Assembly: GCA_003514005.1 (NCBI GenBank)
Contig: DOSJ01000004.1
Span: forward strand, 101,533-165,532
DNA: 64,000 nt
Source of the DNA: Candidatus Falkowbacteria bacterium
Lineage (GTDB): Bacteria; Patescibacteriota; Patescibacteriia; Patescibacteriales; UBA12075
Direction: 5' to 3'
The notes beneath the pieces were generated by a model, which was given only the letters and a program-made list of their open reading frames with translations, was not told the origin of the DNA and made no database searches. Below, piece by piece: positions 4,054 to 59,463 of this stretch; within the stretch, counting starts at the first letter, position 1, and every line of letters starts with the position of its first letter. The position numbers were made by a program, and so were the translations under genes.

Positions 4054-7000
4054 CTATTTTTCTCCGCTCCAGTCCTTACACAAAACCTCGGCTTGTTCCA
4101 ATACTGTTTTGGTTGCCAATTCCTGCTTGTCTGGGGGATATTTATATTTGTTTAATAACTTCTTAACCAAGACGCGAAGCTTGGCCTGTACGCTTTGTTT
4201 GAGCGTCCAATCAATAGAAGTATTTTTGCGAAGCATAACCACCAGCTCTTGAGCAATCTTTTTTAAAATATCATCGCCAAGTTCCATAATCGCACTATCA
4301 TTAGCACAAAGAGCATCGTAAAATGCTACTTCGTCTTCAGTGAGATTAAGATTTCCTCCGCGATTCTTTTCCTCGCGAATCTTTTTTGCCAACTCAACTA
4401 ATTCAGCAATAACTTGAGCGGCCTCAATTGTCTGGTTTTGATATTTCTTGATTGTCTCCTCAAGCATCTTGGCGAACGATCGTGACTTAACCAAAAACTT
4501 CTTTTCCATCGTACGAATCTCGTCATTCAAAAGACGTTTCAAAACTTCCAAAGCCACATTCTTGCGTTCCAAGCCCTGAACTTCCTGCAAGAATTCATCA
4601 GACAAGACAGCAACATTCGGATTTTTCAATCCAGCTGCGTCAAAAATATTTATAACCTTATCCGAAGTCACAGCGTCGGAAACAATCTGCCGGATAGCTT
4701 GATCGTAATCTTCCATTGTCGGTCCACCAAGACCACCAGTCTGTTCAAATTTAGCGATGAAAGCCCGGACAGTTTGGAAAAAGGCTACTTCGTCACGAAT
4801 ATGTAAGGCCTCACTGCTTGGCACCGACAGAGCAAAGGCCTGCGACAATTCAGCAACGCTCTGCAAATATCGTTTCTTGCCGTTTTCCATTCCCAAAATA
4901 TGATCCATGGCCTTGCCGGCAATTTCTGCCTTATCTCGAGCTTTGTCAGAAAAATATCCAGAATAATCAAAGCCATGATACATCGCCTTAACCGTCTCAT
5001 ATTTTTCAAGCATGATACTAATCGCATCCTCTTGCTTAACGGTCGGTGCTTCTTTACCTTCTTGTGTGTAATAAGAAAGAGCTTCCTTGAGCGACGGTGC
5101 GATGCCAAGATAGTCAACAATAAGTCCGCCCGGTTTATCTTTATAAACTCTGTTCACACGAGCGATTGCCTGCATCAATCCGTGACCTTGCATCGGCTTA
5201 TCAATATACATCGTGTGCATTGACGGAGCGTCAAAGCCGGTTAGCCACATATCACGAACAATAACGAGTTTGAGTTCGTCCTTTGGATCTTTCATACGAT
5301 CAGCCAACAAATCTCGTTCTTCTTTGGTATGAATATGCTTCTGATAATTTGCTGGGTCGCCAGCCGATCCAGTCATCACCACTTTTATAAAACCTTTTTT
5401 AATATCATCGCTATGCCACTGTGGTCGTAATTTTATTATCTCGTCATAAAGTTCAACGGCAATTCTGCGACTCATAGATACAAACATACCTTTGCCGTCC
5501 ATAACGCCAAGGCGAGCCTCAAAATGTTCAACAACATCTTTGGCAATCAAAGCAACTCTTTTCTCCGAACCGATCATAGCCTCAAGGCGAGCCCACTTAC
5601 TCTTGAGTTTCTCTTTCTTCTCCACTTCTTCGCCCTCAGTCAATTCTTCAAATTCGGCATCAATCTTTGGTGTTATTTCTTTGAGCAAATCGATCTTGGC
5701 CAGTCGGGCTTCATAATAAATCGGCACGGTCGCTTTATCCTCTACGGCTCGAGTAATATCATACACATCAATATATTCACCGAAAACTGCTCGGGTATTT
5801 TTGTCTGACAACTCAATTGGCGTACCAGTAAAGCCAATAAACGAAGCGTTGGGCAAGGCATCGTGCATATGGCGAGCAAAACCGTCTATAAAATCATATT
5901 GGCTACGATGAGCCTCATCGGCAATCACGATAATATTTTTACGGTCCGAAAGAAGTGGATGTTTGTCGCCCTTAATCTCTGGCATAAACTTTTGAATAGT
6001 GGTAAATACCACACCACCGGAAGCGACCGAAAGAAGCTTTTTGAGATCAGACCTATCTTGAGCTTGCTTGGGAGTCTGTCGGATCAAATCACTGCAATGA
6101 GAGAATACCCCAAACAATTGGCCATCCAAGTCATTGCGATCAGTAAGTAAAACTAGAGTTGGATTATCCAAAGCCTGAATGATTTTGCCAGCATAGAAAA
6201 CCATAGACAAAGATTTGCCAGAACCTTGCGTGTGCCAAACAACGCCGGCACGTCTATCACCATTGGCAGATGACGCTTCGGCTGTTTTTTCAACGGCTTT
6301 ATTAACTGCAAAATATTGGTGATATGCTGACAGCTTTTTGATTGTCTTGCTGACATTATTTTTAGAATCCTTTTCGCTCTCAAAGACAATAAAGTTTTTG
6401 ACGATATCCAGCAGTCGCTCTTTAGCGAAAACTCCCTTGATCAGAATTTCCAAGTCGTTAGTTTTAACAATCTTTTTGCCATCAACACTTTTCCAACCAA
6501 CAAAGCGATCCATATCAGCCGAGATCGTGCCAACAACGGCACTCTTTACATGATCCGCCAAAACGCAAATCTCGTTATAGGCAAACAAAGATGGAATCTC
6601 GGCTTTATATGTTTGGATCTGATTAAATGCACTTTTAAGTGTGGCGTTGGCATCGGCCGGGTTCTTTAACTCAAAAATAGCAATCGGCAAACCGTTCACA
6701 AAAATCATCACATCTGGTCGGCGATTATGATTATTCTCAACGACAGTGAATTGATTGACTGCCAACCAGTCGTTATTATTCAAATTCTTAACATCAAAAA
6801 GGTACACCTTGTCACCAGCGATCGTGCCATCCTCTCGAGCATATTCAACATCGGTGCCTTCAGTCAGCATTTTATGAAAGGCTTGATTGGCAGTTAAAAG
6901 GTTAGGGTTGGAGTAAGCGACATTAACCGCTTTTTTGATTGCTTCCTCTTGAGCGTCTCTAGGAATATTGGAATTTATTTGAGCGACAGCACTACGCAAA

Positions 7001-7158
7001 CGATCAACCAAAACGACATCCTTGTACGATTGGCGTTCTGGATGTTCACCATCAAAAGCAATATCCGGTCCAAAGGCAACGGAATATCCAAGGTCTTCCT
7101 CAAACCATTCAAGGATTGCTTCTTCTAAATCTGATTCAATGTATTTGTAGTGCTTCAT
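4054..7158 (-). CDS. hsdR: type I restriction enzyme R subunit (helicase/endonuclease)
   Basis: 1034 aa. SF2 motor motifs [11 protein letters not shown] (motif I) and [10 protein letters not shown] (DEAH), an N-terminal nuclease-type region ([16 protein letters not shown]), and an operon with hsdM/hsdS. Confidence 0.95.
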
Positions 7159-8753
7159 ATTGTTTTATTAAAAATACAATCAAGTAATTCCTTATAAACC
7201 GTTGTTGCTGGGACAATCTGCTTTGATAGTAATAACTTAAAATCATTTTGATTAATGCCGGTAGTTATACCGCACAAAGACATTAATTCTCCTGTAGCAC
7301 TCTTAACATCTCCATTCTGAATATCTGTAATTTTTGTAGTATATTGTTCGCTGGTCACAGCAGGATATTGTTTTGACACAATTTCAAAATCAAATAGATA
7401 ATTCTCAATTTCTTTTCTTTTCAACATTCTATTCATTGTTGGATTTGCGGCAACAAAATCTTCTCTTTGTTGATCTGTAGTTGATGTTCCATCGGCATTG
7501 ATATCTTTATCTTTAAGTAGACAAAGCTCGACATCCTTAAACGCCTTATTAAGAACCTTAAGAGCAATAGCGGAGTATTTATCAGGTTCTGTGTTTCCAC
7601 CACTTGATATAAAAAGAGTATCCGGTTCACTTTCTTCAAAGATTTTATTGTAAACCTGAGCATCTATTCCGGCCTCTGCACCATTACCACTAGCTTCTTT
7701 TTTACCCTCACAATAGATAATCTTTTTGGGGGCTACTAAACCAGTTAAATCTTCTAACGCTGTTTGAAAAATTTTTTGCCAATTATTTCTACTCTTAACA
7801 ATAGGTGTTAAAGTTTTTGGTTCAGATGCGTAATCACCGTCAAACGCTATCACGGAACATTTATCATTCAAGTTTTCTTTCAAGGCAGTCAGAAATCCTA
7901 TACTGTGAGTTGCGACCCAAAGTTGGCAATTATCTGGTATAATTTTTTCAATTTCAATAAGTAAATTTTTCTGGATGCCAGTGTTTAAATGTAATTCTGG
8001 CTCATCAATGATATATACAGTGTCATCAAATTCTTTACGTTTGAGATACAAATCCAATAGAATATCCACAACCTCCTTCTCGCCGGACGATAAAACATTA
8101 AATTCAAACTCTTTCGGCTGGCTTGGTTTCTTAAAATATAAAGAACCCTTGCCAGATAGAATGTCACCCTCATCTGATATCTCTAAACCAAGACATTTTT
8201 TTAATATTTCGTTTAACTCACCTATAATTTGAGTTTTTGCTTGCTTATCCGTAAGATCGTTAGATTTTCTGTAATCGGTGATATAGATATACAACCTTTG
8301 ATAGTTATTGGTCATTTTATCATCGAGATCAATCGAGGAACTAGCACCAATATTATTCATCTTTATATCGGGAATTCTCTGCAAACTAGTTACATTAAGA
8401 TTTGAATTGTAGCGATATGGATTTCGGTAATTAAAGATTGTATTTTGTTTTCCCGTTGCTTGCTTAGCCGATCTTGTTGTAGAAAAATTACCACTATCAA
8501 AAGTGATTTCAATATTTTGGTGATTATAGTTTGCAACACCCTCCATTGAATGAAACTTGAAGTCCTTTTGCCCAAATTGACCAACGGCTTCGTGTGCGTT
8601 ATTTAAATAGAGCATCCCATCAAATACACTGCTTTTGCCACAGCCATTCGGTCCAACCAAGGCAATTATTTTTGAAGGTGTTTCTCCAAGATCAATAGTA
8701 AGATCTTTAAATCTTTTGTAGCCATTTTTGAATTGTATCTTTTTAATTTTCAT
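7155..8753 (-). CDS. ABC/SMC-type ATPase fused to Toprim/DUF4435-like domain (OLD / GajA / fused PARIS AriA-AriB-like)
   Basis: Walker [10 protein letters not shown], signature-like LSSGEKE, Walker [11 protein letters not shown] and ATHS. The C-terminal third has IIYCEGKKE (Toprim Glu), LLKDKDIN (DxD) and [10 protein letters not shown] (EIENYL box typical of DUF4435/OLD). Its stop overlaps the hsdR start by 4 nt. Confidence 0.8.
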
Positions 8754-8758
8754 AAAAA

Positions 8759-9928
8759 TTAATTTACTCTAATTTTCCCGCTCATCAGTCGAGGTAATAA
8801 AGAATCCCGAACCTGCTCGAGGTTTTTTGTCTGGCTCTCATTTTCGAGAATCATTCCAAAAAATGCAGTCAAAATTTCATTAAATTTATCTAGTGTTTTT
8901 TTGTCAGGAATAATCATCGGGATACTATTCATGTTGGCCTGATTGATTTTTGGCTGAACAGCACCAGTAACAAACGGCATAATATCTACTTGATCCAGGA
9001 ACACTTTTATATATTCTGTCGAAAATCCGTTTTTACCCTGCAAAACATGAGCATGATTGTTGACCCATATTTTACCTTGAACATATTGAACAAATGGCGT
9101 TCCGTCTTCTTTAGCAACCGAACCATCTTCGCCAAGTAATACATATGTCCCGTCAAAAATAAAATCATCCACATAATCCATAATCGAAGTAGCACCGTAG
9201 TAAGGATAACAACCCTGCTTTTTCTCACGTTCTCGACTTGATAGAGGAATACGCTTTGAGTCAAAATTTATTATCGCCTCACCGAATGTACCCATTCTCC
9301 ATCCCTTGGGTAATTCATCGCCAATATCAATAAACCATTTTTTGAATAGTGAGTTTGCCAATATTTCAAGATTTTTATTGATTTTACGATTGAGTTCTAT
9401 TTTGTCATCAAGAGATGAAAGAACCTCAGCAATTTGTTTTTGTTCTGACAATTTGGGAACTGGCCATGCAGTGTCCTTTAAATGATCCCAATCAGCTCGA
9501 GGCATACGAGTACCACTGCTCCCTCCGCTAGCAGATTTAATAAAATCTTCACTGGCGAATAACCAAAATAACCAATCCTGATCAAAACCGGTCTTTGATC
9601 GAGCCACCCAAATGTCTGTTGAGCATATGCCTGAAAATTTAGGCCTGTATACCTTTCTAAAATATGGCCTTAATTTTCCAAACAAAATATCTCCGTCTTT
9701 AAAACGGAATTTATTACTTGTTACATCAGATGATTTACCAACAGAATTAAGAGAAAGAGCTTGTTGGTTTATATGTTCCAACCCTATATAAGAAAGCTCT
9801 TCGTCAGCACTAGGTAAATAGGCATCCTTAACAAGCTCGGCAAATTTATATAACTCCAAACTGATCCATTCCTCTGGAATAGTTCCGATCTCTGTCTCTT
9901 TATATTTTGTGGCGATTTCCGTTTTCAT
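8759..9928 (-). CDS. hsdS: type I restriction enzyme specificity subunit
   Basis: 389 aa with two target-recognition halves separated by the conserved central helix (VPKLSEQKQIAEVLSSLDDKIELNRKINKNLE) and the C-terminal repeat (LEQVRDSLLPRLMSGKIRV). Confidence 0.9.
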   Translation of the reverse strand: MKTEIATKYKETEIGTIPEEWISLELYKFAELVKDAYLPSADEELSYIGLEHINQQALSLNSVGKSSDVTSNKFRFKDGDILFGKLRPYFRKVYRPKFSGICSTDIWVARSKTGFDQDWLFWLFASEDFIKSASGGSSGTRMPRADWDHLKDTAWPVPKLSEQKQIAEVLSSLDDKIELNRKINKNLEILANSLFKKWFIDIGDELPKGWRMGTFGEAIINFDSKRIPLSSREREKKQGCYPYYGATSIMDYVDDFIFDGTYVLLGEDGSVAKEDGTPFVQYVQGKIWVNNHAHVLQGKNGFSTEYIKVFLDQVDIMPFVTGAVQPKINQANMNSIPMIIPDKKTLDKFNEILTAFFGMILENESQTKNLEQVRDSLLPRLMSGKIRVN

Positions 9929-9931
9929 AAC

Positions 9932-10267
9932 TTAAATCAAATTTTTTACAATAAGAAATCCAAATAACCCGATAAAGATAAAGCCAAGCGAGAGCAGAAT
10001 TGCTGTTATTGGATTGTGATGTATTTCTTTCCATGAGATCAATGCCGTGGGGCCGGTATAAACATTCGGTGGTTTAATAGTTGAAAATTTTTGTTCAGCA
10101 ATCCAATAAGATATGCCAATTAGTAGCATTCCTATTCCAAGACCACATAGATGTTTGTTTTGGATAAAATCAATCTTCACAGTGAAAGACATAAAAATAG
10201 CACCTACGCCAAGTAATAGGATTATTTTCCACCAAGTATCTATTTTTAAGCTTTCAAGAAATTTCAT
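9932..10267 (-). CDS. small integral membrane protein (111 aa, ~4 TM) inserted between hsdM and hsdS
   Basis: Track ORF with four hydrophobic segments. It lies 2-3 nt from hsdM and hsdS on the same strand. Confidence 0.55.
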   Translation of the reverse strand: MKFLESLKIDTWWKIILLLGVGAIFMSFTVKIDFIQNKHLCGLGIGMLLIGISYWIAEQKFSTIKPPNVYTGPTALISWKEIHHNPITAILLSLGFIFIGLFGFLIVKNLI

Positions 10268-10269
10268 AG

Positions 10270-11832
10270 TTATTTTATTTCAAACCCAACACTCTTCAGG
10301 TTTTTCTTTATTCTATCCTCGAGCTCTTTAGACTGCTTAAACTGATCTCCAAGTTCGGCGGTGACTTTGGTCATCTTATCTTCAAAAGTTCCGTCGTCTT
10401 CCTCGACATAATCCGAGCCGACGTAACGTCCGGGGGTAAGAACAAATCCATTCTTTTCAACCTCTGTTATTTTGGCCGCTTTGCAAAAACCTTTAACGTC
10501 TTCGTATTTACCGTTGATTGTTCGCCAAGCGTGATAAACACCGGTAATCTTTTTCAAATCTTCGTCTGTAAGCTCACGGTTCTTGCGAGTAACCATCGTT
10601 CCCATTTTACGAGCATCAATAAAAAGAATCTCGTCGTGTCGATTGCGGAATTTATGATCGTAACGATCACGAGAGACAAACCAAAGACACGCTGGAATCT
10701 GCGTCGTATAAAACAGTTGGCTTGGGAGAGCGACAATGCAATCAACCAAACCATTCGTGATCAAGCTTTGTCTGATGTCTCCCTCGCCGGAGGTGTTCGT
10801 TGAAAGCGAGCCATTGGCCAAAACAAAACCTGCGATGCCGGTGGGGGCCAGATGATGAATCATGTGCTGAATCCAGCCGTAGTTGGCATTACTAGCCGGT
10901 GGCACACCGTACTTCCAGCGGACATCGTCTTTGAGCCGTTCACCACCCCAATCGCTGATATTGAATGGCGGATTGGCAAGAATAAAATCTGCTTTTAAAT
11001 CTTTGTGTAGATCGTTATGAAAAGTATCGGCATTCTGCGATCCAAGATTGCCGTCAATACCGCGAATAGCAAGGTTCATTTTGCAAAGCCTCCAAGTGGT
11101 AGGGTTTGACTCTTGTCCATAAATGGCAAGATCGTGAGTTTGACCGCCATGTGCTTCCACGAATTTCTCGCTTTGCACAAACATGCCACCCGATCCGCAA
11201 CACGGGTCATAAATACGACCCTTATACGGCTCGAGCATTTCCACAAGAAGCTTGACCACTGACTGGGGAGTAAAGAACTCACCTCCACCCTTACCTTCAG
11301 CACCAGCAAATCTACCAAGGAAATATTCATAGACACGGCCGAGCACATCTTTGCTTCGGCTGGCTTTATCACCAAGACCGATAGAACTCATAAGATCAAT
11401 AAGTTCACCGAGGCGGACTTTATCAAGATCAGGACGACCGTAATTTTTGGCTAACACACCTTTGAGACTTGGATTGTCCTTTTCAATAGCAATCATAGCG
11501 TCGTCCAAAAGCTTGCCGATCTCTGGTTTCTTGGCGTTGGCTTTTAGATATTCCCAGCGAGCAATTGCTGGCACCCAAAACACACCTTCAGAGATATAGG
11601 CGTCTTTATCTTCTTCTTGACCTTCATAATAATCAGCGTCAGCCTTGATGGATTTGTAGACTTCCTCGAATGAGTCAGAAATATATTTGAGAAAAATCAA
11701 ACCGAGAACCACGTGCTTGTATTCGGCCGGGTCCATGTTATTTCGCATCTTGTCGGCCAGTGACCAGAGCGTCTCTTCAAAGCCGACATTCGCACCGTTT
11801 GATTTTTTATTTTTGGCGATTTCCTTTGGCAT
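10270..11832 (-). CDS. hsdM: type I restriction-modification N6-adenine DNA methyltransferase subunit
   Basis: 520 aa. HsdM N-terminal domain ([32 protein letters not shown]), SAM motif DPCCGSGGM and catalytic LANPPFN. Confidence 0.95.
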
Positions 11833-16327: not shown

Positions 16328-18025
16328 ATGGAACATGCATTAATTTACTGCCGAGTCTCAACCGAGGAACAGGCCGAGGACGGCCACCACTCCCTTGCGA
16401 CCCAGCTCAAGCTCTGCAAACGAGCGATCGAGGAAAGTAACAAATTCAAACTGATAGATGACGGTGTTTTTGAAGACCCCGGACGATCAGCCACCAACAT
16501 GAACCGCCCCGGACTGCAAGACATGCTACTTAAAATCCAAGACGACAAAACAATCAGAGCAGTATTTATTCAAGACACTGACCGACTTGCCAGAAACGCT
16601 CTTGATCACATGCAGATCAAGGCGATTATGAAAAAGCATGATGTTGAACTTTTTTCTGTCTCCCAGCCGGGCATTACCGATAGCCCCGAGGGAAACTTTA
16701 TGGACTTGGTGATTGCCGGTGTGAACCAACTCCAATCCCAAATCACTTCCAGAAAAACTCTAAAAAGTCTTGAGCAGAAATTCTGGGAGGGTTGGTGGCC
16801 GACCGGTGTGGCTGTCGGATATTTAAATGCTGGCGAACCAGACGATGAGAAAAAGAGAATTATTATCGTAGACGAGGAACGAGCCCCACTTATTCAAGAA
16901 GCCTTTAAAATGTATGTGACCGGAGATTATTCGGTCTTTGAAGTTCGCGATGCTTTATACAAAAAAGGTTTTAGAACTCACGCCGATAAACGGCTCGCTC
17001 ACAGCAAGATGATTGAGATATTAAAAAATCCTTTTTACTACGGCGAGATGAGGTGGCGAGGATTAGTTAACACCGGAAAACATAAACCGCTTATAGATAA
17101 AGATTTATGGGAACGAGTCCAACTAGTTATGGCCGAACACAATAGATATGCCTGTCGACGGCAAAAATTCAATTTCATTCTGCGAGGCCTGACCTTTTGT
17201 GCCAACTGCGGTCAAAGATACACCGCCGAACATCATCCTAAGAAAAACAAATCTTATTACCATTGCAACCGATCTGGCGATCAGATTAAATGCCAAGATA
17301 AGTATGTGGAAGTTTGGGATATAGAACAGCAAGTTGCCAACTTGTTCAAGTACATAGAATTCACTCCCAATTTTACCGACAGACTGGTGACCAAGATTGA
17401 AAAGATTTACAGCGGTCGCAAAGAAGTGATTAATAAAGATAAGAAAGCCCTGAATACTCAAAAGATGATGTTTGAAAAGAAACGGGATACAGCCGAGGAA
17501 AAACTTTTTGCCGGATTAATCACTGATGACGACTTCTCCAGAGTAAAAGTTAAAATCAAAGAACAGCTCGAGCTATTGCAAGACGAATTGTATGCCCAAG
17601 ATAAAAAACTCAATATGAGAATCGATGAACTGCAAGATATGCTCTTATTCGTCCGCAATGCTTACGAAGCCTATACCAAATCACCGGATGAAATGAAAAG
17701 ACTATTCCTTGGCCTTTACTGGGAGAGATTTGAAGTAGCCAACAAAAAAATCCAAACCGTAATACCGTCACCGATCATAAGGGGGCTGATGCAAGCCGAG
17801 GACATGGTCTTTACCAAGAAATACAAAGAAATTACCGGTCCGAGAATAATAACCGACTTGGCCGTAGAATTTACACCATTCATAGCCGGCAAATCAAAAT
17901 CCAAGATTGCCCCTAAAACGCAAAAATCCCGACAAATTGCCGAGATTCCTGCAATGATATCCAATCAACCAAACTCGGTTATATTAGATACCGTTTGGGG
18001 TGAGGTACGGGAATCGAACCCGTAA
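16328..18025 (+). CDS. large serine recombinase (integrase)
   Basis: N-terminal resolvase catalytic domain ALIYCRVSTEEQ and DRLARN, recombinase domain, Zn-ribbon CANCGQRYTAEHH...YYHCN...C, and coiled-coil. The last ~10 codons are antisense to tRNA-His. Confidence 0.9.
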   Translation: MEHALIYCRVSTEEQAEDGHHSLATQLKLCKRAIEESNKFKLIDDGVFEDPGRSATNMNRPGLQDMLLKIQDDKTIRAVFIQDTDRLARNALDHMQIKAIMKKHDVELFSVSQPGITDSPEGNFMDLVIAGVNQLQSQITSRKTLKSLEQKFWEGWWPTGVAVGYLNAGEPDDEKKRIIIVDEERAPLIQEAFKMYVTGDYSVFEVRDALYKKGFRTHADKRLAHSKMIEILKNPFYYGEMRWRGLVNTGKHKPLIDKDLWERVQLVMAEHNRYACRRQKFNFILRGLTFCANCGQRYTAEHHPKKNKSYYHCNRSGDQIKCQDKYVEVWDIEQQVANLFKYIEFTPNFTDRLVTKIEKIYSGRKEVINKDKKALNTQKMMFEKKRDTAEEKLFAGLITDDDFSRVKVKIKEQLELLQDELYAQDKKLNMRIDELQDMLLFVRNAYEAYTKSPDEMKRLFLGLYWERFEVANKKIQTVIPSPIIRGLMQAEDMVFTKKYKEITGPRIITDLAVEFTPFIAGKSKSKIAPKTQKSRQIAEIPAMISNQPNSVILDTVWGEVRESNP

Positions 18026-18071
18026 CAGGAGCGCCACAAGCTCATGTGATAACCGTTTCACCAACCTCACC
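17996..18071 (-). tRNA. tRNA-His (GTG), intact, with encoded G-1 and CCA
   Basis: Hand-folded: G-1 + GTGAGGT / TG / GTGA-AACGGTTA-TCAC / A / TGAGC-TTGTGGC-GCTCC / TGTT / ACGGG-TTCGATT-CCCGT / ACCTCAC / C / CCA. Confidence 0.9.
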
Positions 18072-19236: not shown

Positions 19237-19310
19237 TGTACCCGACAGGGTTCGAACCTGTGACCTACAGCTTAGAAGGCTGTCGCTCTATCCAGCTGAG
19301 CTACGGGTAC
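19237..19310 (-). tRNA. tRNA-Arg (TCT)
   Basis: Hand-folded: GTACCCG / TA / GCTC-AGCTGGATA-GAGC / G / ACAGC-CTTCTAA-GCTGT / AGGTC / ACAGG-TTCGAAC-CCTGT / CGGGTAC / A. Confidence 0.9.
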
Positions 19311-22737: not shown

Positions 22738-22836
22738 GACAATATTGCATATGCAAATGCTTAATATATTGCAATATTGTCAACGTAATCACGGAAAATG
22801 ATATAAAATGCCTGGTAAAATACTTGACAATATTGC
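22738..22836. promoter_or_regulatory. three GACAATATTGC(A) operator-like boxes
   Basis: gacaatattgca 22738-22749, inverted copy tgcaatattgtc 22770-22781, and gacaatattgc 22826-22836 overlapping the -35 of the plus-strand promoter. They lie between the divergent TrmB gene and the non-coding locus. Confidence 0.5.
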
Positions 22837-22852
22837 TATTCTGTGATATACT
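22824..22852 (+). promoter_or_regulatory. near-consensus sigma70-type promoter
   Basis: TTGACA (22824-22829), 17-nt spacer ending TGa, TATACT (22847-22852). Confidence 0.6.
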
Positions 22853-22858
22853 GGTTAA

Positions 22859-23808
22859 TCAAGCTAAGAAACGGAGAATTTGTCAAATTGGTAAGAAGTT
22901 AAAAATTGCACATTAGAAAAAAAACAATATATTTCAAGAACTTATCGGCGGAGCTTTGAGTGGCGTAAATTATCGGAGAGAGAAAAGATGATTTCGTCCA
23001 AGCGAAACAGGTAAGGTTTTGGAATTACTAGCTAGAGATGCTTCTTTGGTCTCACGAGAGAAGAGAGCAAAGAAGAACTTTATCTGGTAAGGATACAGAT
23101 CATTACAATTTAATACTCTGGAGAGAGACAAGTGATTTTCGATTTTCGATTGGCGATTTTCGATTTAGTTTAACAGTGATTGGTTTCTCTTCATTAAATT
23201 AGTGAATAGAAATTGGTTGCTGTTTTTTAAAACTAAAAAATGATCAAAAATCTGAAGAGGAGAGAGATGCTTCCTTTTCTGAACTGCGGGTTTGCCCGTA
23301 GATTGGATAGGGAATGATAACAAAAATTATTCAGGGAAAGAAAATCATGTCAATCGTCCCAAAAGAATAATACAATATTCTCTTCAAATTTTTGTTCTTT
23401 TTAAAAAAATTAACTGCTTTGGGAAATTTCGCCAAAATGAAGTCTCGACCATGCTTGGAGAGTTCTTCCCCCGAAAAAATGCTTTGCATTCTCGGGGTAA
23501 AATTGGAGAGAGTAGATTTCTTGAAGTAATTATAACTAATCAAGTTCGACCGCGTAAAGATGCTGTGCATCCGCGCGGAAATGTGCCGAGCCCTGTGGGA
23601 TTTGTCTGGTTTCGTTTCGAACCGGAACTGATAAGTTCTGCAATTTTCAAGTAAGTGAGTGCATCTGTCCCGCGGAAACGCGAGGCAGGCCGCTGAAAGA
23701 AGGCTACGGACGATCGATATCTTATCAAAGAGATCGACTGCGCGTGAAGGATTGAACCCCCTTCGCGTTCAGAAATTTCTCTGGTAGAGAAAGAATTTTT
23801 TTAAACAA
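22859..23808 (+). ncRNA. ~950-nt promoter-to-terminator locus without a credible long ORF (micro-ORFs plus structured GC-rich 3' half); class unknown
   Basis: Bounded by the promoter at 22824 and the stem-loop/T-run at 23783-23808. Contains four GGAGAGAG boxes, covarying hairpins, a CGCG-GAAA-CGCG tetraloop hairpin (23671-23682) and a local GC content well above its surroundings. Confidence 0.4.
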
Positions 23809-23834
23809 AAAAACCTCCGTATTAGGCGGAGGTT
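23801..23834 (-). terminator. intrinsic terminator of the 88-aa gene
   Basis: aacctccg-tattagg-cggaggtt hairpin followed on the minus strand by a T-run (forward aaacaaaaaaa). Confidence 0.7.
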
Positions 23835-23848
23835 AAATAGTAAGGTAT

Positions 23849-24406: not shown

Positions 24407-24616
24407 ATGAGAAAAAGTGATTTGAACTTTTCAGGAAATGAAACTAACGTCGTATCTGGAAAGGCGGTGAAAATCGTCAGCGATAAAGAAGGTAAATTTT
24501 TTGCTGTCGCAATATTGGGCGGCAGAGAATATTATCATCTTGTTGAAAAAAAAGATGGATGGGATGAAAGATTTTTACCTTCCCGGTATTTCGCTGAGGG
24601 AGGAATCAAAATTTAA
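24407..24616 (+). CDS. hypothetical small protein (69 aa)
   Basis: Track ORF preceded by GGAGAGGGAG 7 nt upstream of the ATG. Confidence 0.5.
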   Translation: MRKSDLNFSGNETNVVSGKAVKIVSDKEGKFFAVAILGGREYYHLVEKKDGWDERFLPSRYFAEGGIKI

Positions 24617-52426: not shown

Positions 52427-52924
52427 ATGAAAATAGCAATTATCGCCGATATTCATGATAATCTCGTAAACCTTGAAAAGTGTTTGCGTTATTGTTCCGG
52501 GCAAAAAGTTGAAACATTACTTTGTTGCGGTGATGTAACAAATTTTGACACGCTTGAATATATATCAGAAAATTTTCCTGGTCAGATTTATTTGGTTCAG
52601 GGGAATATGGAGATTTATGAAGAAAAAGATGTTTTAAAATTTTCTAATATAAATTTTTTAGGTCGAGTTGGACGCATTGTTTTGGATAAAAAAAGTATCG
52701 GACTTTGTCATGAGCCGTTTTTAAAAAATAGCGCTTTAAAACTCGGCGCTTGCGACTTTATTTTTTACGGCCATACGCATAAGCCGTGGATAGAAGAGAA
52801 TGAAGGATACAAATTTATCAATCCCGGAACTCTGGGCGGCGTTTTTCAGCGCGCGACCTTTGCTTTGTGGGATACGGATAATGCGGAGCCGGAGTTGAAG
52901 GTTTTGGATTTGATAAAAGGATAA
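52427..52924 (+). CDS. YfcE/MJ0936-type metallophosphoesterase
   Basis: IAIIADIHDN, CCGDV, LVQGNME and YGHTHKP. Confidence 0.85.
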   Translation: MKIAIIADIHDNLVNLEKCLRYCSGQKVETLLCCGDVTNFDTLEYISENFPGQIYLVQGNMEIYEEKDVLKFSNINFLGRVGRIVLDKKSIGLCHEPFLKNSALKLGACDFIFYGHTHKPWIEENEGYKFINPGTLGGVFQRATFALWDTDNAEPELKVLDLIKG

Positions 52925-53014
52925 ATATTAAAAAAAATTGTAATAATAAATTATTTTTTTTATTTAATTTTAGCTAAAATATTAATAATTATCACATATT
53001 TTCGCATTTTGCTA

Positions 53015-53043
53015 TTGACAAAAAGATGAATATGTGATAGCAT
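53015..53043 (+). promoter_or_regulatory. putative promoter TTGACA-N17-TAGCAT flanked by a 10-bp inverted repeat
   Basis: ttgaca 53015-53020, TGa-tagcat 53035-53043. The inverted repeat atcacatatt (52991-53000) / aatatgtgat (53029-53038) brackets the -35. Confidence 0.45.
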
Positions 53044-53146
53044 GTTGTTATTAATCCTGAAAAGGAAAAATATAAGAATGTAGTACATTGACAATCCTCA
53101 CTTGTTTTTAACCGATCATTTAACCTGAAAGGAGGTGATGATAGAT

Positions 53147-53197
53147 ATGCGCCGTTTTAATACCAGAAAACGTAATTTTTTTGGAATGAAAAAATGA
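53147..53197 (+). CDS. micro-ORF (16 aa, MRRFNTRKRNFFGMKK; an in-frame ATG also lies at 53138)
   Basis: AAGGAGGTG at 53129-53137, 9 nt before the ATG at 53147. Very basic peptide. Confidence 0.25.
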   Translation: MRRFNTRKRNFFGMKK

Positions 53198-53268
53198 TCC
53201 TGCCCGGCTCCAGCCTGCGAGTCCACGCGAGCTCTCTGAAATCGCGTTACACCCCAAGGAGGTGAAAA

Positions 53269-53298
53269 ATGACACAACGGTCGTCTAGTTACGGGTAG
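53269..53298 (+). CDS. micro-ORF, 9 aa MTQRSSSYG
   Basis: Perfect SD AAGGAGGTGA (53256-53265) 3 nt upstream of the ATG. A paralogous copy lies 132 nt downstream. Confidence 0.4.
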   Translation: MTQRSSSYG

Positions 53299-53400
53299 TG
53301 AAATTACACCGGTTTGTAATAAACCTGCCCCCGGGTTGAATGCCCACATGCGGAAAAATTCAAGGTTACCCTGAATAACCACTCACCACAGGAGGTGATC

Positions 53401-53430
53401 ATGACACAACGGCCTTCGAGCTATGGGTAG
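53401..53430 (+). CDS. micro-ORF, 9 aa MTQRPSSYG
   Basis: AGGAGGTGA (53390-53398) precedes the ATG. It differs from the first copy at codons 5-8, and three of the four changed codons are synonymous. Confidence 0.4.
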   Translation: MTQRPSSYG

Positions 53431-53987
53431 CAGTTTCACTGTTGCTGAAAAAAACAAAATATACTAAGAAATAATGACCCGGAACTGACCCGCCCTACCT
53501 GGCCGCCATAAGCGCGCGCATGTAACGCGGCTCCCTACACCCGCTATTTTTCCCAATATTCGGGTGATTGTTTGGCGATTCAGTTTGGAAAACGGCCGGG
53601 GGATTTCCTGATGAAATCCAGCCCCGCCACTATATCCTCGAAGAAGTATCGGTGCCAAAACTGGTTGCGCTCCACCTTTATCGCCCATTGAGTGCACCTG
53701 CTTATCGGACCGATGTGGCTGGAAAACCAGACCACAAATGTGAAAATCCCTCTTGAATGAGGGCTATGACCGGGAAGAAGTCCTGGTTGAAGAAAGAGAT
53801 AAGTAAAAAGTATTCCCGTCGAAGGATGGGGAAATTTCCGGGAAAACATCCCGGTTTGTGTAACCGGCCTATCCTGAATGAATGTTGGCCGTCCCACCCC
53901 TTACCGTGTTCTGCAGACATGGTAAGGGGTTTTTTATATAAAAAAGCGCATAGTAACTATGTGCTTTTTAAATATTTGAAACTAAAA

Positions 53988-56900
53988 TTATCCAAGCGCT
54001 TTTTTCAAAAACTTACCAGTATGTGTATCGGTCTCCGCAACTTCAAGCGGTGTGCCTTGTGCAACAATATAGCCGCCTTTGTCGCCACCTTCTGGGCCGA
54101 GGTCAATGATGTGATCGACGGATTTTATTACGTCTAGGTTGTGTTCGATAATTAAGACGGTGTTACCTTTGTCAACCAGTTTGTTTAATACACCCAATAA
54201 GCGTTTAATATCTTCAAAATGGAGGCCGGTGGTTGGTTCGTCCAGAATATAGAGGGTTTTGCCAGTAGCGCGGCGCGAGAGTTCGCTAGCCAGCTTGATG
54301 CGTTGGGCCTCACCTCCAGATAGTGTCGTGGCAGATTGACCGAGTTTGATATAGCCTAGTCCAACCTCAAATAGGGTTAACATTTTGGTGTAAATAGTCG
54401 GGATATTTTTGAAAAAATCCATTGCTTCTTCGATCGTCATATTGAGTACATCGGAAATGTTTTTTCCTTTATAAAAAATATCAAGTGCTTCTTTGTTGTA
54501 TCTATGTCCATGGCAAACTTCGCATTCTACATAAACATCGGGCAAAAATTGCATTTCGATTTTAACCATGCCGTCGCCGGAGCAGGCTTCACAGCGGCCG
54601 CCGACAACGTTAAACGAGAAACGTCCGGCTTTGTAGCCTCTTATCTTTGATTCGGGTAAGCCGGCAAAAAGATCGCGGATAGGAGTGAAGGCGCCGGTAT
54701 AGGTAGCTGGATTGGAGCGCGGTGTTCGGCCGATTGGTGATTGGTCAATATCGATTACTTTATCAATAAAGCCCAGGCCTTCAATACGGTCATGTTTGCC
54801 TGGTTCGGCTTTGGCGCGGTAAAATTTTTTGCTCAAAGCCTTGGCAAGAATATCGGACATAAGGGTTGACTTGCCGGATCCGGATACACCGGTGATTGCG
54901 ATTAGCTTGCCCAAAGGAAATTCAACATCAATATTTTTTAGATTATGTTCGCTGGCGTTATAAATTTTGATCGCTTGCCGCAGTCCTTTGCGATAGGTTT
55001 TTGGGGCAATAATCGATTTTTTACCGGATAAATATTGCCCGGTCAAAGAAACCGTGCTTTTTTTGATCTGCGCTGGAGTTCCGGCCGCGATGATATTACC
55101 ACCATGTTCGCCCGCACCAGGGCCTACGTCAATTAGCCAATCAGCGGCATTCATGGTTTCTTCGTCATGTTCGACAACAATAACCGTATTACCGATATCG
55201 CGCAGTTTTTTGATAGTTTCGATTAGTCTTTTATTGTCTCTTTGATGAAGTCCGATTGAGGGTTCATCCAAGATATATAAAACTCCGACAAGCGATGTGC
55301 CGATCTGATTTGCCAAACGGATGCGTTGGGCCTCTCCGCCCGAAAGCGTGTTGGCCGCGCGGCCGATTGTTAGATAGCTAAGGCCGACATTGTTCAAAAA
55401 ATCCAAACGCGCGCAGATTTCTTTGATAATTTGGGTAGATATCTTTTTTTCTTTGGCGCTTAGCTCTTTGCTTTCCGCCATTTCACAAAAAAATTCTTTG
55501 GCTTTATCAATCGTTTTTGTGCTAACATCATGAATGGAATGGGAAAGAATTTTCACACCCAAAATCTCTTTTTTCAAGCGTTTGCCTTCGCAAGACGGAC
55601 AGATAAGTACGCGCATGTATTGCTCGATCTCTTTTCGTACCCAGTCGGATTCGGTTTGGTTGAAACGGCGTTCCAGATTTGGGACAACACCTTCAAATTC
55701 TGTCGAGAGCTCGCCGGAAAAGCGTTCGCTTTCGTAGTCAACGCTATAGTTTTTTTTGCCAGTGCCATATAGCACAATATCAAGCTGTGCCTTGGTCAAA
55801 TCTTTTATCAAAGTATTCAGATCAAAACCGTTTTTTGTAGCAACCGTACCAAGAATACGCATGAGCCAAGTTTGCCCGGTGGTAGTGCTGTGCGACCAAG
55901 GGCGGATTCCGCCTTGGGCGATTGTTAGGTTCTGATTTAAAATTAATTTTGGATCTATTTCAAGCTTTGTACCGATTCCGGAACACTCCGGACATGCGCC
56001 ATGGGGAGAATTAAACGAAAAATTGCGTGGTTCCAATTCAGGCAGACTGATGCCGCAATCCGGACAAGCAAAAAGCTTGGAATAAGTAATGTCTTTATTA
56101 TCCGCGCTTTTGCTTTCAGTCGCCCCTCCCCAGTCTTGGGAAGGGGATGGGGGTGGGGTGTTTTTTTTAATCGTAGGCGATACTGTTATCAATCCATTTC
56201 CCAAATCAAGTGCTTTTTCTACCGCTTCGGCAAGCCGTGCGCGGTCTTCGTTTCCATCCAGATTAAAGCGGTCAATAACTATTTCAACAGTATGTTTTTT
56301 TTGTTTATTTACTTCCAGGTCTTCAACCTCATCCAAAGTATAGTAAGAGCCATCAAAACGAACTCGGCTAAAACCGGCTTTGGCAATGCCGACCAAAATA
56401 TTTTTATGCTCACCTTTTTTGTCTTTGATTAATGGGGCAAGGATGGTAAGATTGGTTTTGGCAAACATCCGGGTTACGTTATCGACAATCTCGTCAACCG
56501 TATATTGGCGGATTTTTTTTCCGCATTCCGGGCAATGCGGTACGCCAATACGCGCGAAGAGTAGGCGCATATAATCATATATTTCTGTAATCGTACCAAC
56601 GGTCGAGCGTGGATTGTGCGGTGCCGTTTTTTGGTCTATTGAGATAGCAGGCGACAAGCCCTCGATCGAATCAACATCCGGCTTGTCCATAAGCCCGACA
56701 AATTGTCTGGCATAGGCCGAAAGTGACTCAACATATCGTCTTTGCCCCTCGGCATAGATAGTATCAAAAGCCAAAGAAGACTTGCCGGATCCGGAAAGTC
56801 CGGTAATCACGACAAATTTGTCGCGCGGTATTTCGACATTGATATTCTTGAGATTATGAACGCGTGCCCCCTTTATTTTTATTGAGTTATTGTTTGACAT
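53988..56900 (-). CDS. uvrA: excinuclease ABC subunit A
   Basis: Two ABC modules ([36 protein letters not shown] twice), zinc modules and 970 aa. Confidence 0.97.
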
Positions 56901-57065
56901 TTATATTATTCTTTAATTATTTAACGGATTTTATTATACATCAGTTTTTCGGGTAGCGCAAGGGGGAGTCGGTGATTTTTCTTTGATATTTTTTAGCTTG
57001 ACAAAAATAGGGAAAACATGTAGTATGAATTCAACAATTTCGCACATTTAATTTAAGGAGAAATT

Positions 57066-57698
57066 ATGATTAATTGTTTGTTCTTTGATTTTGGGAATGT
57101 TATTTATTTTGCGGATCAGATGATTGCGTATAAAAAATTTTCTGAGTATAGCCCTTTTTCAGCTGAAAAAATATACGAGCTGATTTATTTGGGTGGTATT
57201 GAGAAAATTCCAGATGAAGGAGGGACTTTTAGTAATTTTTATCTAGAATCTATTAAGAAAATCAAGGCCGACAAGAAAAAATTAACATCTGATATCTTTT
57301 TAGAAATTTGGTGTAATATTTTTAGCCCCGTTAATGGAATGGATGAATTACTTCAAAAAATAAAACCCGATGTTAGAAAAATTCTTGTATCAAATACAAA
57401 CTTTATCCATTGGCAAGGGACAATGTCAAAGCTTCCTTTGATAAAAAAGCATTTTTCAGAAAAAGAAAATCAAGTGCTCTCATTTCAAGTCGGCAAAAGA
57501 AAACCAGATAATTTGATGTGGATTGAAGCATATAAAAAGGGAAAGTGTAATCTGGATGAAGCATTGTTTATCGATGACGTGCCCTTGTTCGTAGATTCTT
57601 TTCAAATATTTGGGGGGAAAGGAATTGTGTTTAATGCAAAAACTGATTCCATTTATTTTCTAGAAAAAAAATTAAAGACGTACGATGTTTTAATTTGA
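57066..57698 (+). CDS. HAD-superfamily hydrolase (YihX-like)
   Basis: FFDFGNVIYF (motif I variant DxGxV), SNTN (motif II) and FIDDV (motif IV). Confidence 0.75.
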   Translation: MINCLFFDFGNVIYFADQMIAYKKFSEYSPFSAEKIYELIYLGGIEKIPDEGGTFSNFYLESIKKIKADKKKLTSDIFLEIWCNIFSPVNGMDELLQKIKPDVRKILVSNTNFIHWQGTMSKLPLIKKHFSEKENQVLSFQVGKRKPDNLMWIEAYKKGKCNLDEALFIDDVPLFVDSFQIFGGKGIVFNAKTDSIYFLEKKLKTYDVLI

Positions 57699-57832
57699 AA
57701 AAATAAATTATTACATAAAATAAACCTCGACAGACTTTGTTCTGAGCGAGGTTTTTTAGTTTGACAAAAATCAAGATTACCTGTATTGTAATTTCAACAA
57801 TTCAGAAACAAATAAAAAAGGAGAAAAATAAA

Positions 57833-58015
57833 ATGAGCCCTTTACCATTTATTATTGTAGGAAAAATTGTTTTGATTCCGGCGTATTTTGCCATTAAAAA
57901 ATTTGGCGTAAAAACTGTTGGTACTGCTCTTTTAAAAACCGCTGTTGGTACCACAATACTAACGGCAACATATAAAGGATTAAGGAGTATTCATGAAAAC
58001 AAAAGAGCAAATTAA
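57833..58015 (+). CDS. small membrane protein (60 aa)
   Basis: AAGGAGAA SD 8 nt before the ATG. Two hydrophobic helices. The track start at 57761 is the TTGACA of a likely promoter. Confidence 0.5.
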   Translation: MSPLPFIIVGKIVLIPAYFAIKKFGVKTVGTALLKTAVGTTILTATYKGLRSIHENKRAN

Positions 58016-58247
58016 AGCAGATTTGCGTTTTGGCAGATTTGCACGAATTGCAATGATTATATTGATAGTTATTTTGGCGTTAGTAGCAGTATTATCATCT
58101 ATTGATATCTATTTTTTTGGTCTTAATAAGTTCAATTTCGTATTACTTTTTGCTCCATCAATTTTAGTCTACAATTGTTTTTTGGTCGTTGAAATAGCTG
58201 ACAAGAATATTTTAAGGCTAAAAAATATTCCACTTAAGGAAGAGTAA
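57993..58247 (+). CDS. small membrane protein (84 aa)
   Basis: TAAGGAG SD. Two TM helices. Overlaps the upstream ORF by 23 nt. Confidence 0.5.
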   Translation: MKTKEQIKADLRFGRFARIAMIILIVILALVAVLSSIDIYFFGLNKFNFVLLFAPSILVYNCFLVVEIADKNILRLKNIPLKEE

Positions 58248-58258
58248 AAGGAGAGTTA

Positions 58259-58435
58259 GTGAATACAGAAAATATAGATAAGGAAAATTTTGGTTTTATC
58301 GAATTTTTAAAATCATTTCCAACTATGCTATTTCTGGTTTTCGTAGCCATGATGGTAGCCTTCTTCCTTTATGCTTGCATGACTGATGTGGGCACGATGG
58401 AGTTTGCTCGTTTTTTTATCGGGACGTTTATATGA
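58259..58435 (+). CDS. small membrane protein (58 aa, GTG start)
   Basis: Own translation (below the track cutoff): (M)NTENIDKENFGFIEFLKSFPTMLFLVFVAMMVAFFLYACMTDVGTMEFARFFIGTFI. AAAGGAGAG SD. Followed by the terminator at 58468. Confidence 0.45.
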   Translation: MNTENIDKENFGFIEFLKSFPTMLFLVFVAMMVAFFLYACMTDVGTMEFARFFIGTFI

Positions 58436-58467
58436 CGAGATATAGAGAAAATTTTAACTACCAATCA

Positions 58468-58501
58468 AACCCCGCTTGTAATATAGCGGGGTTGTTTTTT
58501 T
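58468..58501 (+). terminator. intrinsic terminator
   Basis: aaccccgct-tgtaatat-agcggggtt followed by gttttttt. Confidence 0.8.
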
Positions 58502-58599
58502 AAATATAGAAGTATTTTTACAAATTGACAAAATCAATTATTTATAATAAATTAAAGTCCTGAACATTCAAAATAGAATATTAAAAAAGGAGAGAGAAA

Positions 58600-59463
58600 A
58601 TGGAAAAAATTAAAAAATTGGTAAGCATTATTTTTGTATTTATGTTTTTTGTATCCGGACTTGCTTTTGCAGAGGATAAGATTCGAGTATTATTATCCGA
58701 GGGACAGCTTAAAAGCATAAGTGTCAAAAGAGTGAAGGATGTTGAGGTGCAAATTTCTTTCAGCGATGAATTATCGGGCTTGCATGAATATACTATAAAA
58801 GAAATTGTACAAAAACTTTTGATTGAAAAACAGCCGTTTTACTACAATGAAAGATTAAATACGCTAAGTAGTTTATTACCGCTTAGGATTAACCGGGAAT
58901 ATAGTTATAAAATATTTCTAGATCAGGAAAAGAATCTTATATATGGGGAAAAAATATTAAATGAACCCATTTCTGCATCTAAAATCTGGAGATGTTATAC
59001 AACGATGTTGCTATCATTATTTATTCTGGTACTGCCAATGATTTTTAAAATTACAATCCATTTTTATTCAAAAAATAAAGGATGGCTAAGCGTGTTTTTT
59101 GTTTCATTATTTTTGATTATGTTTGTTATTCAATTATGTATAGTGGGTGAATTTATAATGATTTTATTTTTAGCACAGATAGTTTTAATTGGCGCTTCAG
59201 TATTTATAAATGATGTATTTTTAGAAAAAATCAGCATAAGAAAATTTCCAGCAATTTTTGCCAGTACATTTTTGATGACAATTTCCGTTTTAGCAGGAAT
59301 TGTAGTACTGGTGAATATTCAAATTGCACAATCTATTAATTTTCTTCTAGTTCCGTATTTTATTTATTTTTTTATCACTTGCATATTGTTTTTTATTGTA
59401 TATTTCTTGGAAAAAAGAAAAACACAAACAATAAAATGCGATTTTCAATTTGATAGTAAATAA
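58600..59463 (+). CDS. membrane protein (287 aa): signal peptide, ~120-aa exposed domain, ~5 TM
   Basis: GGAGAGAG SD (58589-58596) 3 nt before the ATG. Signal-like N-terminus IIFVFMFFVSGLAFA. Confidence 0.6.
   Translation: MEKIKKLVSIIFVFMFFVSGLAFAEDKIRVLLSEGQLKSISVKRVKDVEVQISFSDELSGLHEYTIKEIVQKLLIEKQPFYYNERLNTLSSLLPLRINREYSYKIFLDQEKNLIYGEKILNEPISASKIWRCYTTMLLSLFILVLPMIFKITIHFYSKNKGWLSVFFVSLFLIMFVIQLCIVGEFIMILFLAQIVLIGASVFINDVFLEKISIRKFPAIFASTFLMTISVLAGIVVLVNIQIAQSINFLLVPYFIYFFITCILFFIVYFLEKRKTQTIKCDFQFDSK

Follow-up and report, generated by a model that had tools for sequence, protein, structure and literature searches.

What would a genome that starts most of its genes without a Shine-Dalgarno (SD) sequence do with a gap between genes that holds three such sequences, each of 10-11 nt, and no credible protein-coding gene? 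The question is raised by a 64,000-nt stretch of contig DOSJ01000004.1 (hereafter the window, always taken at its full length), which comes from Candidatus Falkowbacteria bacterium GW2011_GWC2_38_22, an uncultured groundwater organism whose genome has also been assembled as GCA_003453605.1. The gap, which we call the 53-kb locus, is bounded by a metallophosphoesterase gene (52427-52924; Pfam Metallophos_2, E = 1e-27) and by the stop codon of uvrA at 53988. Judged from its sequence, the locus is best explained as a self-contained transcription unit about 0.89 kb long, with a predicted start near 53050 and an end at 53930-53936, whose product would be a lineage-specific polycistronic micro-open-reading-frame (micro-ORF) RNA or a dual-function RNA, shielded by ribosomes sitting on its strong sites. 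We give this reading, taken as a whole, a probability of about 0.4. The locus is in no described family; the general kind to which it would belong, structured RNAs with small ORFs and ribosome-protecting SD sequences, is already known. An earlier reading of the bare sequence, made without database searches (below, the sequence-only reading), had proposed an undescribed large structured or dual-function RNA. Part of that proposal survives: no known family was recognized, the signals of a unit are strong and the 3′ half is stabler than its controls, but no homolog came to light. If real and expressed, the element would be one of the earliest candidates for a regulatory or dual-function RNA to be described from bacteria of the Candidate Phyla Radiation.

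Signals and coding potential in the gap beside uvrA

The elements of the locus, in window coordinates, are the following.

52990-53039: perfect 11-nt inverted repeat, arms TATCACATATT (52990-53000) and AATATGTGATA (53029-53039), 100% complementary and 28 nt apart
53015-53043, plus strand: sigma-70-type promoter, TTGACA (53015-53020), 17 nt, TAGCAT (53038-53043), 10/12 matches, with the TG of an extended -10
53130-53197, plus strand: SD1, AGGAGGTGAT within GAAAGGAGGTGAT, and micro-ORF1, MRRFNTRKRNFFGMKK, from ATG 53147 to TGA 53197, 16 codons
53257-53298, plus strand: SD2, AAGGAGGTGA, and micro-ORF2 (53269-53298), MTQRSSSYG*, 9 codons
53390-53430, plus strand: SD3, AGGAGGTGATC, complementarity to the canonical 16S tail over 11 nt; micro-ORF3 (53401-53430), MTQRPSSYG*, 9 codons
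53461-53892, plus strand: multi-hairpin 3′ domain, GC about 50%, z = -3.3 (coding controls, +0.97 to -2.11)
53594-53628, 53714-53736, 53748-53763, 53768-53788, 53813-53832 and 53838-53854: stable hairpins of the 3′ domain, individual z down to -6.0
53896-53936, plus strand: intrinsic terminator, 15-bp stem (53896-53930) with a 5-nt loop, then a T-run, -24.9 kcal/mol, z = -6.4

The promoter had been recognized by the sequence-only reading, and the extended -10 TG comes in addition. The inverted repeat said to bracket it is there as well, as a perfect repeat of 11 nt and not of 10; it flanks the -35 hexamer, overlaps the spacer and the extended -10, and is a candidate operator. The terminator is the locus's own, as had been claimed, and distinct from the uvrA terminator hairpin at 53941-53969. 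With these signals in place, the locus would be transcribed as a unit. The layout cTATTGACAAA...TGTG...TAnnAT is common to this promoter, to that of a second locus of the window (22825-23835, hereafter the 22.8-kb locus) and to that of a locus following uvrA in two other Falkowbacteria, both of which are considered below.

Could the gap hide a protein gene, or its remains? Three-base periodicity is absent (power 1.2, against 1.6 ± 0.5 in shuffles and 3.6-12.2 in six real genes), and the reading frames of the locus, up to 10 of them, have no match in Pfam, PHROGs or NCBIfam. The longest minus-strand frame containing a called ORF, of 99 aa, was scanned in full with HMMER against 1.84 billion representative proteins: it recovered its own spurious ORF, which serves as a positive control, together with two weak multi-stretch matches to long proteins that we read as noise. 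When Inositol_P, Memo/AMMECR1 and other proteins of the syntenic region served as tblastn queries against the gap, the best E was 0.015 and no colinearity was seen. The view that no credible ORF is present is thus borne out, and a decayed gene, which might have undone the proposal, left no trace in periodicity, protein families or syntenic remnants. Leader-peptide attenuators of the erm, cat or trp type were considered and rejected, as no ORF with a coding signal precedes the terminator at 53896-53936.

On the RNA side, Rfam 15 at gathering thresholds gives no match in the locus, be it to RNase P, tmRNA, SRP, 6S, OLE, GOLLD, ROOL, HEARO, raiA, group I/II introns or riboswitches, and in the rest of the window it finds only two tRNAs. 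When E values up to 10 are admitted, only terminator look-alikes appear, the best of them on the terminator pair itself (28.6 bits against a threshold of 59). ARAGORN sees neither a tRNA nor a tmRNA in the locus.

Ribosome-binding sites and micro-ORFs

The window has just three copies of the motif AGGAGGTGA, at 53130, 53257 and 53390, where 0.19 would be expected; none of 100 shuffles reaches three. An ATG follows the successive copies after 8, 3 and 2 nt (at 53147, 53269 and 53401), so that the three consensus ribosome-binding sites of the sequence-only reading, each with its start codon, are found again. Micro-ORF1 has two alternative starts in frame, GTG at 53135 (20 codons) and ATG at 53138 (19 codons), and a weak hairpin (-8.5 kcal/mol) takes up half of its SD. 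AAGGAGGTGA and AGGAGGTGATC make 10-11 contiguous pairs with the canonical 16S tail GAUCACCUCCUU, a tail from which the host's own may differ. Strong-SD small-peptide mRNAs are set apart by an SD that forms Watson-Crick pairs with the 16S 3′ tail at no fewer than 10 of 12 positions, and by several small ORFs at functional start spacing in one unit. Pairing of that extent is found here against the canonical tail, and the ORFs, of 16, 9 and 9 codons, are arranged in just this manner.

Micro-ORF2 and micro-ORF3 are, by the look of their sequences, paralogs: 25 of their 30 nucleotides are identical, and the SD and the first 12 nucleotides of the ORF do not differ at all. Four of the five differences fall on third-codon positions; from ORF2 to ORF3, TCT becomes TCG, AGT becomes AGC and TAC becomes TAT, all synonymous, and one codon passes from Ser to Pro. 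A hypergeometric estimate for at least four of five changes on the 10 third positions of 30 gives p of about 0.03. The substitution pattern is coding-like and the ORFs look translated, which is suggestive, not decisive, and brings some added support to the dual-function reading. We infer from these features that the micro-ORFs would be translated and that their peptides may have roles. An origin of the locus by tandem repetition was rejected: a TRF search was negative, and the three 'units' of about 130 nt align poorly beyond the SD and ORF2/ORF3.

Three SD sites of 10-11 nt are highly anomalous in this organism because most of its genes start without an SD. Among window ORFs of at least 150 codons, 38 of 40 have at most 4 nt of anti-SD complementarity upstream, and SD-poor starts lie in A/T-rich contexts such as aaaaATATG. 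SD recognition is probably still operating in the genome, since five consecutive genes (57056-58588) carry AAGGAG at a spacing of 5-9 nt, and two initiation regimes seem to coexist. The AAGGAG-led cluster, at 57056-59463, lies directly upstream of uvrA and is made of five unannotated genes coding for 58-287 aa, with starts at 57066, 57833, 57993, 58259 and 58600. AAGGAG also precedes a few other genes, for example at 24616.

The 3′ half and how the RNA might work

GC content runs at 0.45-0.55 over 53191-53890, and the locus is the sole ORF-free GC-rich segment of the window. The figure of about 50% given by the sequence-only reading is therefore sound, while the 35% it assumed for the background must be raised to a window mean of 0.38. 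As for folding, the z-score of the minimum free energy (MFE) is -4.3 for the whole RNA. The 3′ half accounts for it with -4.96 when the terminator is included and about -3.33 when it is left out (antisense strand, -3.41 and -2.73), against -1.1 for the 5′ half, so that the locus can be called highly structured in its 3′ half and not in its 5′ half. Eleven coding segments of 432 nt and GC 0.43-0.49, drawn from the same window, spread from +0.97 to -2.11, with -3.35 for the 3′ half in the same run; lying below all of them, it is therefore unusually stable. Every helix named beforehand folds as described, down to the hairpin at 53838-53854 and its alternative at 53851-53867, which share CCGG and were both detected. 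The 3′ domain may have a separate role of its own.

Two further observations concern the sequence of the RNA. The tetranucleotide UGAA, often within YCUGAAW, occurs 15 times in sense over 53045-53936, against 8.1 ± 2.5 in dinucleotide shuffles and 3 in antisense; a count of 15 is reached in only 0.3% of window tiles. In a crude blastn-short comparison of the locus with the window, the longest complementary match that might represent target pairing was 13 nt.

How might such an RNA work? Because most genes of the genome start without an SD, the strong sites would recruit 30S subunits or ribosomes unusually tightly. Bound ribosomes would then translate the micro-peptides and shield the transcript from decay at its 5′ end, while the 430-nt multi-hairpin 3′ domain and the strong terminator would protect the 3′ end, or else the domain would have a separate function at the RNA level. 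Among nine window ORFs scanned against Pfam, five of them of at least 450 aa, none is an RNase J.

Dual-function small RNAs are an obvious term of comparison: Staphylococcus aureus RNAIII (514 nt) carries hld, Bacillus subtilis SR1 carries SR1P and Escherichia coli SgrS carries SgrT. They join a small translated ORF, or several, to a multi-hairpin domain in one transcript of comparable size, as the 53-kb locus would. It differs from them in having three ORFs rather than one, in its lack of homologs and of any recognized complementarity to targets, and in a regulatory role that is entirely hypothetical.

Protection by ribosomes has its own precedents. In B. subtilis, the yrzI/spyTA transcript is a polycistronic small-peptide mRNA with a structured 3′ end, on which RNase J1 is stopped by ribosomes at an SD paired in 11 of 12 positions (PMC12067863), and the STAB-SD of cry3A stabilizes its own mRNA likewise (PMC4113751). 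What the 53-kb locus has in common with yrzI/spyTA, hbs and the cry3A STAB-SD is the presence of tiny ORFs and of an exceptionally strong SD, here of 10-11 nt and three times over; with yrzI/spyTA it also shares a structured 3′ end closed by a terminator. There is, however, no homology of sequence or peptides, the ORFs of yrzI/spyTA have 17-49 codons and those of the locus 9-16, the untranslated 3′ domain of the locus extends over 430 nt, and ribosome protection would hold there by analogy. Furthermore, its host is almost free of SDs, which makes strong sites an exception and not the end of a continuum.

Another precedent is found in SD-blind Bacteroidia, where an extended SD is a rarity and singles out a message that only ribosomes whose anti-SD is free will read (PMC9976891, PMC13000453, PMC7797042). 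The rpsU circuit of these bacteria resembles the present case by its SD-less genome, its A-rich upstream regions and its rare extended SD on a special transcript, but there the SD stands before a ribosomal-protein gene and here before micro-ORFs. Moreover, in contrast to Bacteroidia, some window genes use AAGGAG, and the anti-SD has been detected in only part of the Parcubacteria (PMC9297842). If the locus is real and expressed, it would show that a genome nearly devoid of SDs retains some transcripts whose SD strength is maximal, which raises the question of whether the anti-SD of reduced ribosomes is still working, and for which special messages.

Distribution, analogous loci and rival explanations

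The closest relatives by UvrA are at most 84% identical. In relatives, among them L097, L098, L099 and L009, uvrA is followed on the opposite strand by Memo/AMMECR1, Inositol_P, Metallophos and Trp_Tyr_perm, which is the ancestral order. Here, Inositol_P and AMMECR1 have been lost from the slot (52925-53990), are absent elsewhere in the window and have been replaced by the locus; other relatives vary in what they carry there, be it a tRNA, small ORFs, AbiEii or a glycosyltransferase. The sequence-only reading had asked whether homologs keep the place beside uvrA, and no homolog was found: nhmmer gives none in 80 uvrA loci from GTDB species, in 10 additional metagenome loci around uvrA or in a later set of 17 further loci, distant-mode blastn none in phages and plasmids, and a pattern scan of IMG/VR no match. 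A similar scan of JGI metagenomes gave one chance match inside sucA; it was incomplete, missing contig Ga0208373_1014610 (L087), where the pattern is present twice. Copies of the locus in five other samples are 99.9-100% identical, with one single-nucleotide polymorphism inside it, and covariation analysis is impossible because they are so nearly identical. To the extent of these collections, the locus is specific to one Falkowbacteria species, and its confinement to a single uncultured species limits its practical value for now.

Loci of comparable build do exist. The 22.8-kb locus has a TTGACA-17-TATACT promoter inside an inverted repeat, four of the six plus-strand copies of GGAGAGAG in the window (at 22975, 23120, 23259 and 23505; a start codon follows three of the four, and none follows 23505) and a 3′ half (23380-23811) with an MFE z of -5.45. 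The sequence-only reading, which placed it at 22.86-23.81 kb, saw its layout mirrored at 53 kb. This is roughly so for the promoter, the SD-type sites and the structured 3′ half, but the two loci have no common sequence.

A further analogue follows uvrA in the Falkowbacteria metagenome-assembled genome (MAG) JAZDLN01 (L005; UvrA 77% identical), in convergent orientation as in the 53-kb locus. Situated at 9085-10135 on the minus strand, it displays a promoter of the form cTATTGACAAA...TGTGTTATTAT, a leader rich in AT, three micro-ORFs each led by an SD, a body of about 850 nt at 55-71% GC without credible ORF, and a terminator; Rfam offers no match for it, and its host, too, has an SD-poor genome. 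This locus has a true homolog in Falkowbacteria RIFOXYB2_FULL_47_14 (L093-L096, UvrA 98%; in L093 at 6950-8047, minus strand), with 83% identity over 1120 nt and 26 gaps. Their noncoding core is 86-98% identical, with a mean of about 93%, against 77.8% at the fourfold-degenerate sites of uvrA, and is therefore under purifying selection. The micro-ORFs (29-31, 15-18 and 14 codons) stay in frame across indels of 6 and 9 nt, and ORF2 keeps its GKWP* ending in both genomes through three synonymous changes. No relatives were found beyond the two lineages, a search by way of a spurious antisense ORF returning only itself. Homology of this pair to the 53-kb locus was rejected: the best blastn E is 0.2, nhmmer gives nothing in either direction, and a covariance model of the core scores at most 3.2 bits in the 53-kb locus against about 239 bits on its own two sequences. 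The likeness lies in position, orientation, promoter type, AT-rich leader, three SD-led micro-ORFs, GC-rich ORF-free body, strong terminator and SD-poor host; the differences lie in the order of ORFs and core, in a GC content reaching 71% and in unrelated peptides. By analogy, then, such an architecture can be functional.

Several points weigh against the favoured reading. The argument from the L005/L093 pair is one of analogy only, the loci being non-homologous, and the two-sequence fold tests on that pair are themselves weak, with kept and broken pairs at about 15:15 in sense and about 6:16 in antisense. In the 53-kb locus, the stability of the 3′ half is only modestly strand-specific (z = -3.33 in sense, -2.73 in antisense), ORFs of 9 codons are extremely short, and the case for paralogy of ORF2 and ORF3 is built on just five substitutions. 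No collection searched yielded a homolog of the locus, and the copies from other samples are nearly identical. Finally, an anti-SD motif was detected in only 48% of Parcubacteria 16S genes (PMC9297842).

A bolder extension of the favoured reading would have SD-independent Falkowbacteria carry fast-evolving, lineage-specific 'SD-armoured' RNA genes in the slot after uvrA, the 22.8-kb locus being possibly a second type. The two non-homologous post-uvrA loci, with their single architecture, would in that case belong to one functional class, either through convergence or after rapid divergence. Perfect complementarity to the anti-SD might draw in a particular pool of ribosomes, or 16S tails that are free, the RNA acting as a sensor or sponge of ribosome state; alternatively, the micro-peptides, which are basic and aromatic, might combine with the structured domain to form a small ribonucleoprotein. 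We regard this extension as a long shot.

What else might the locus be? It could be a purely noncoding structured RNA with incidental micro-ORFs, in which three AGGAGGUGA elements would bind 30S subunits, the free 16S tail or an RNA-binding protein, and the RNA would act as a sponge, sensor or scaffold. The greater stability of the 3′ domain over coding controls speaks for it, as do the strand-specific enrichment in UGAA (15 in sense, 3 in antisense) and the lodging of each SD in a small hairpin of the form UCACC...GGUGA whose loop contains GGA, and in SD-blind Bacteroidia strong SDs are indeed sensors of ribosome state (PMC9976891, PMC13000453). Yet an ATG stands at workable spacing after all three sites, the differences between ORF2 and ORF3 are coding-like, the structure of the 5′ half is insignificant (z = -1.1) and three sites are few for a sponge. 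A sponge of the CsrB/RsmZ type was rejected: GGA is not enriched (15 against 13.8 ± 3.1 expected), a loop GGA is found only in the three SD hairpins, and a search limited to the window found no CsrA homolog. A noncoding RNA is on balance unlikely, though it deserves serious consideration. Non-functional or decaying foreign DNA that took the place of the ancestral genes at a hot spot of recombination, flanked by chance with promoter- and terminator-like sequences, is distinctly unlikely. It would account for a locus that is absent from every relative, for a slot whose content differs by lineage, and for a GC content and strong SDs atypical of the genome. It fits poorly, however, with a promoter, an operator-like repeat and a 15-bp terminator that are intact and in correct order; decay in an AT-rich genome should drift toward AT, where the locus stands at 50% GC, searches of its frames show no likeness to a protein family or to a syntenic gene, and the analogous L005/L093 locus is under clear purifying selection.

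Action in cis on the neighbours is very improbable, whether as a convergent transcript modulating 3′ processing of uvrA or as a long leader or attenuator. The locus is transcribed convergently toward uvrA, a similar one adjoins uvrA in L005/L093, and the exclusive hairpins that share CCGG, the first of them followed by UUUGUGU, recall an attenuator; but the terminator of the locus ends 52 nt before the uvrA stop, with the uvrA terminator in between, no ORF follows inside the unit, and most relatives are without such an element beside uvrA. As to a known RNA family in divergent form (RNase P, tmRNA, SRP, 6S, OLE, ROOL, GOLLD, HEARO or an intron), or an unrecognized gene or pseudogene, its probability is next to negligible: Rfam, ARAGORN, periodicity, Pfam/PHROGs/NCBIfam, the 99-aa HMMER scan and tblastn are all negative, and nothing was found in its favour.

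Other elements were seen in passing. In a Saccharibacteria MAG (L016, 10440-10800), about 300 nt rich in GC and in hairpins lie downstream of a TTGACA-17-TAATAT promoter and close with a strong stem-loop immediately ahead of a gene led by an SD. This element has no Rfam match, though RNase P RNA was found elsewhere in the same locus, and could be a leader, or something like a riboswitch, of an undescribed type. The window itself codes for a type I restriction-modification methylase, HsdM (10270-11832), and for a large serine recombinase with Resolvase, Recombinase and Zn-ribbon domains (16328-18025), which abuts two tRNA genes (17999-18070 and 19237-19310); a recombinase beside tRNA genes hints at the integration of a mobile element. 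Cumulative GC skew is lowest near 13.5 kb of the window.

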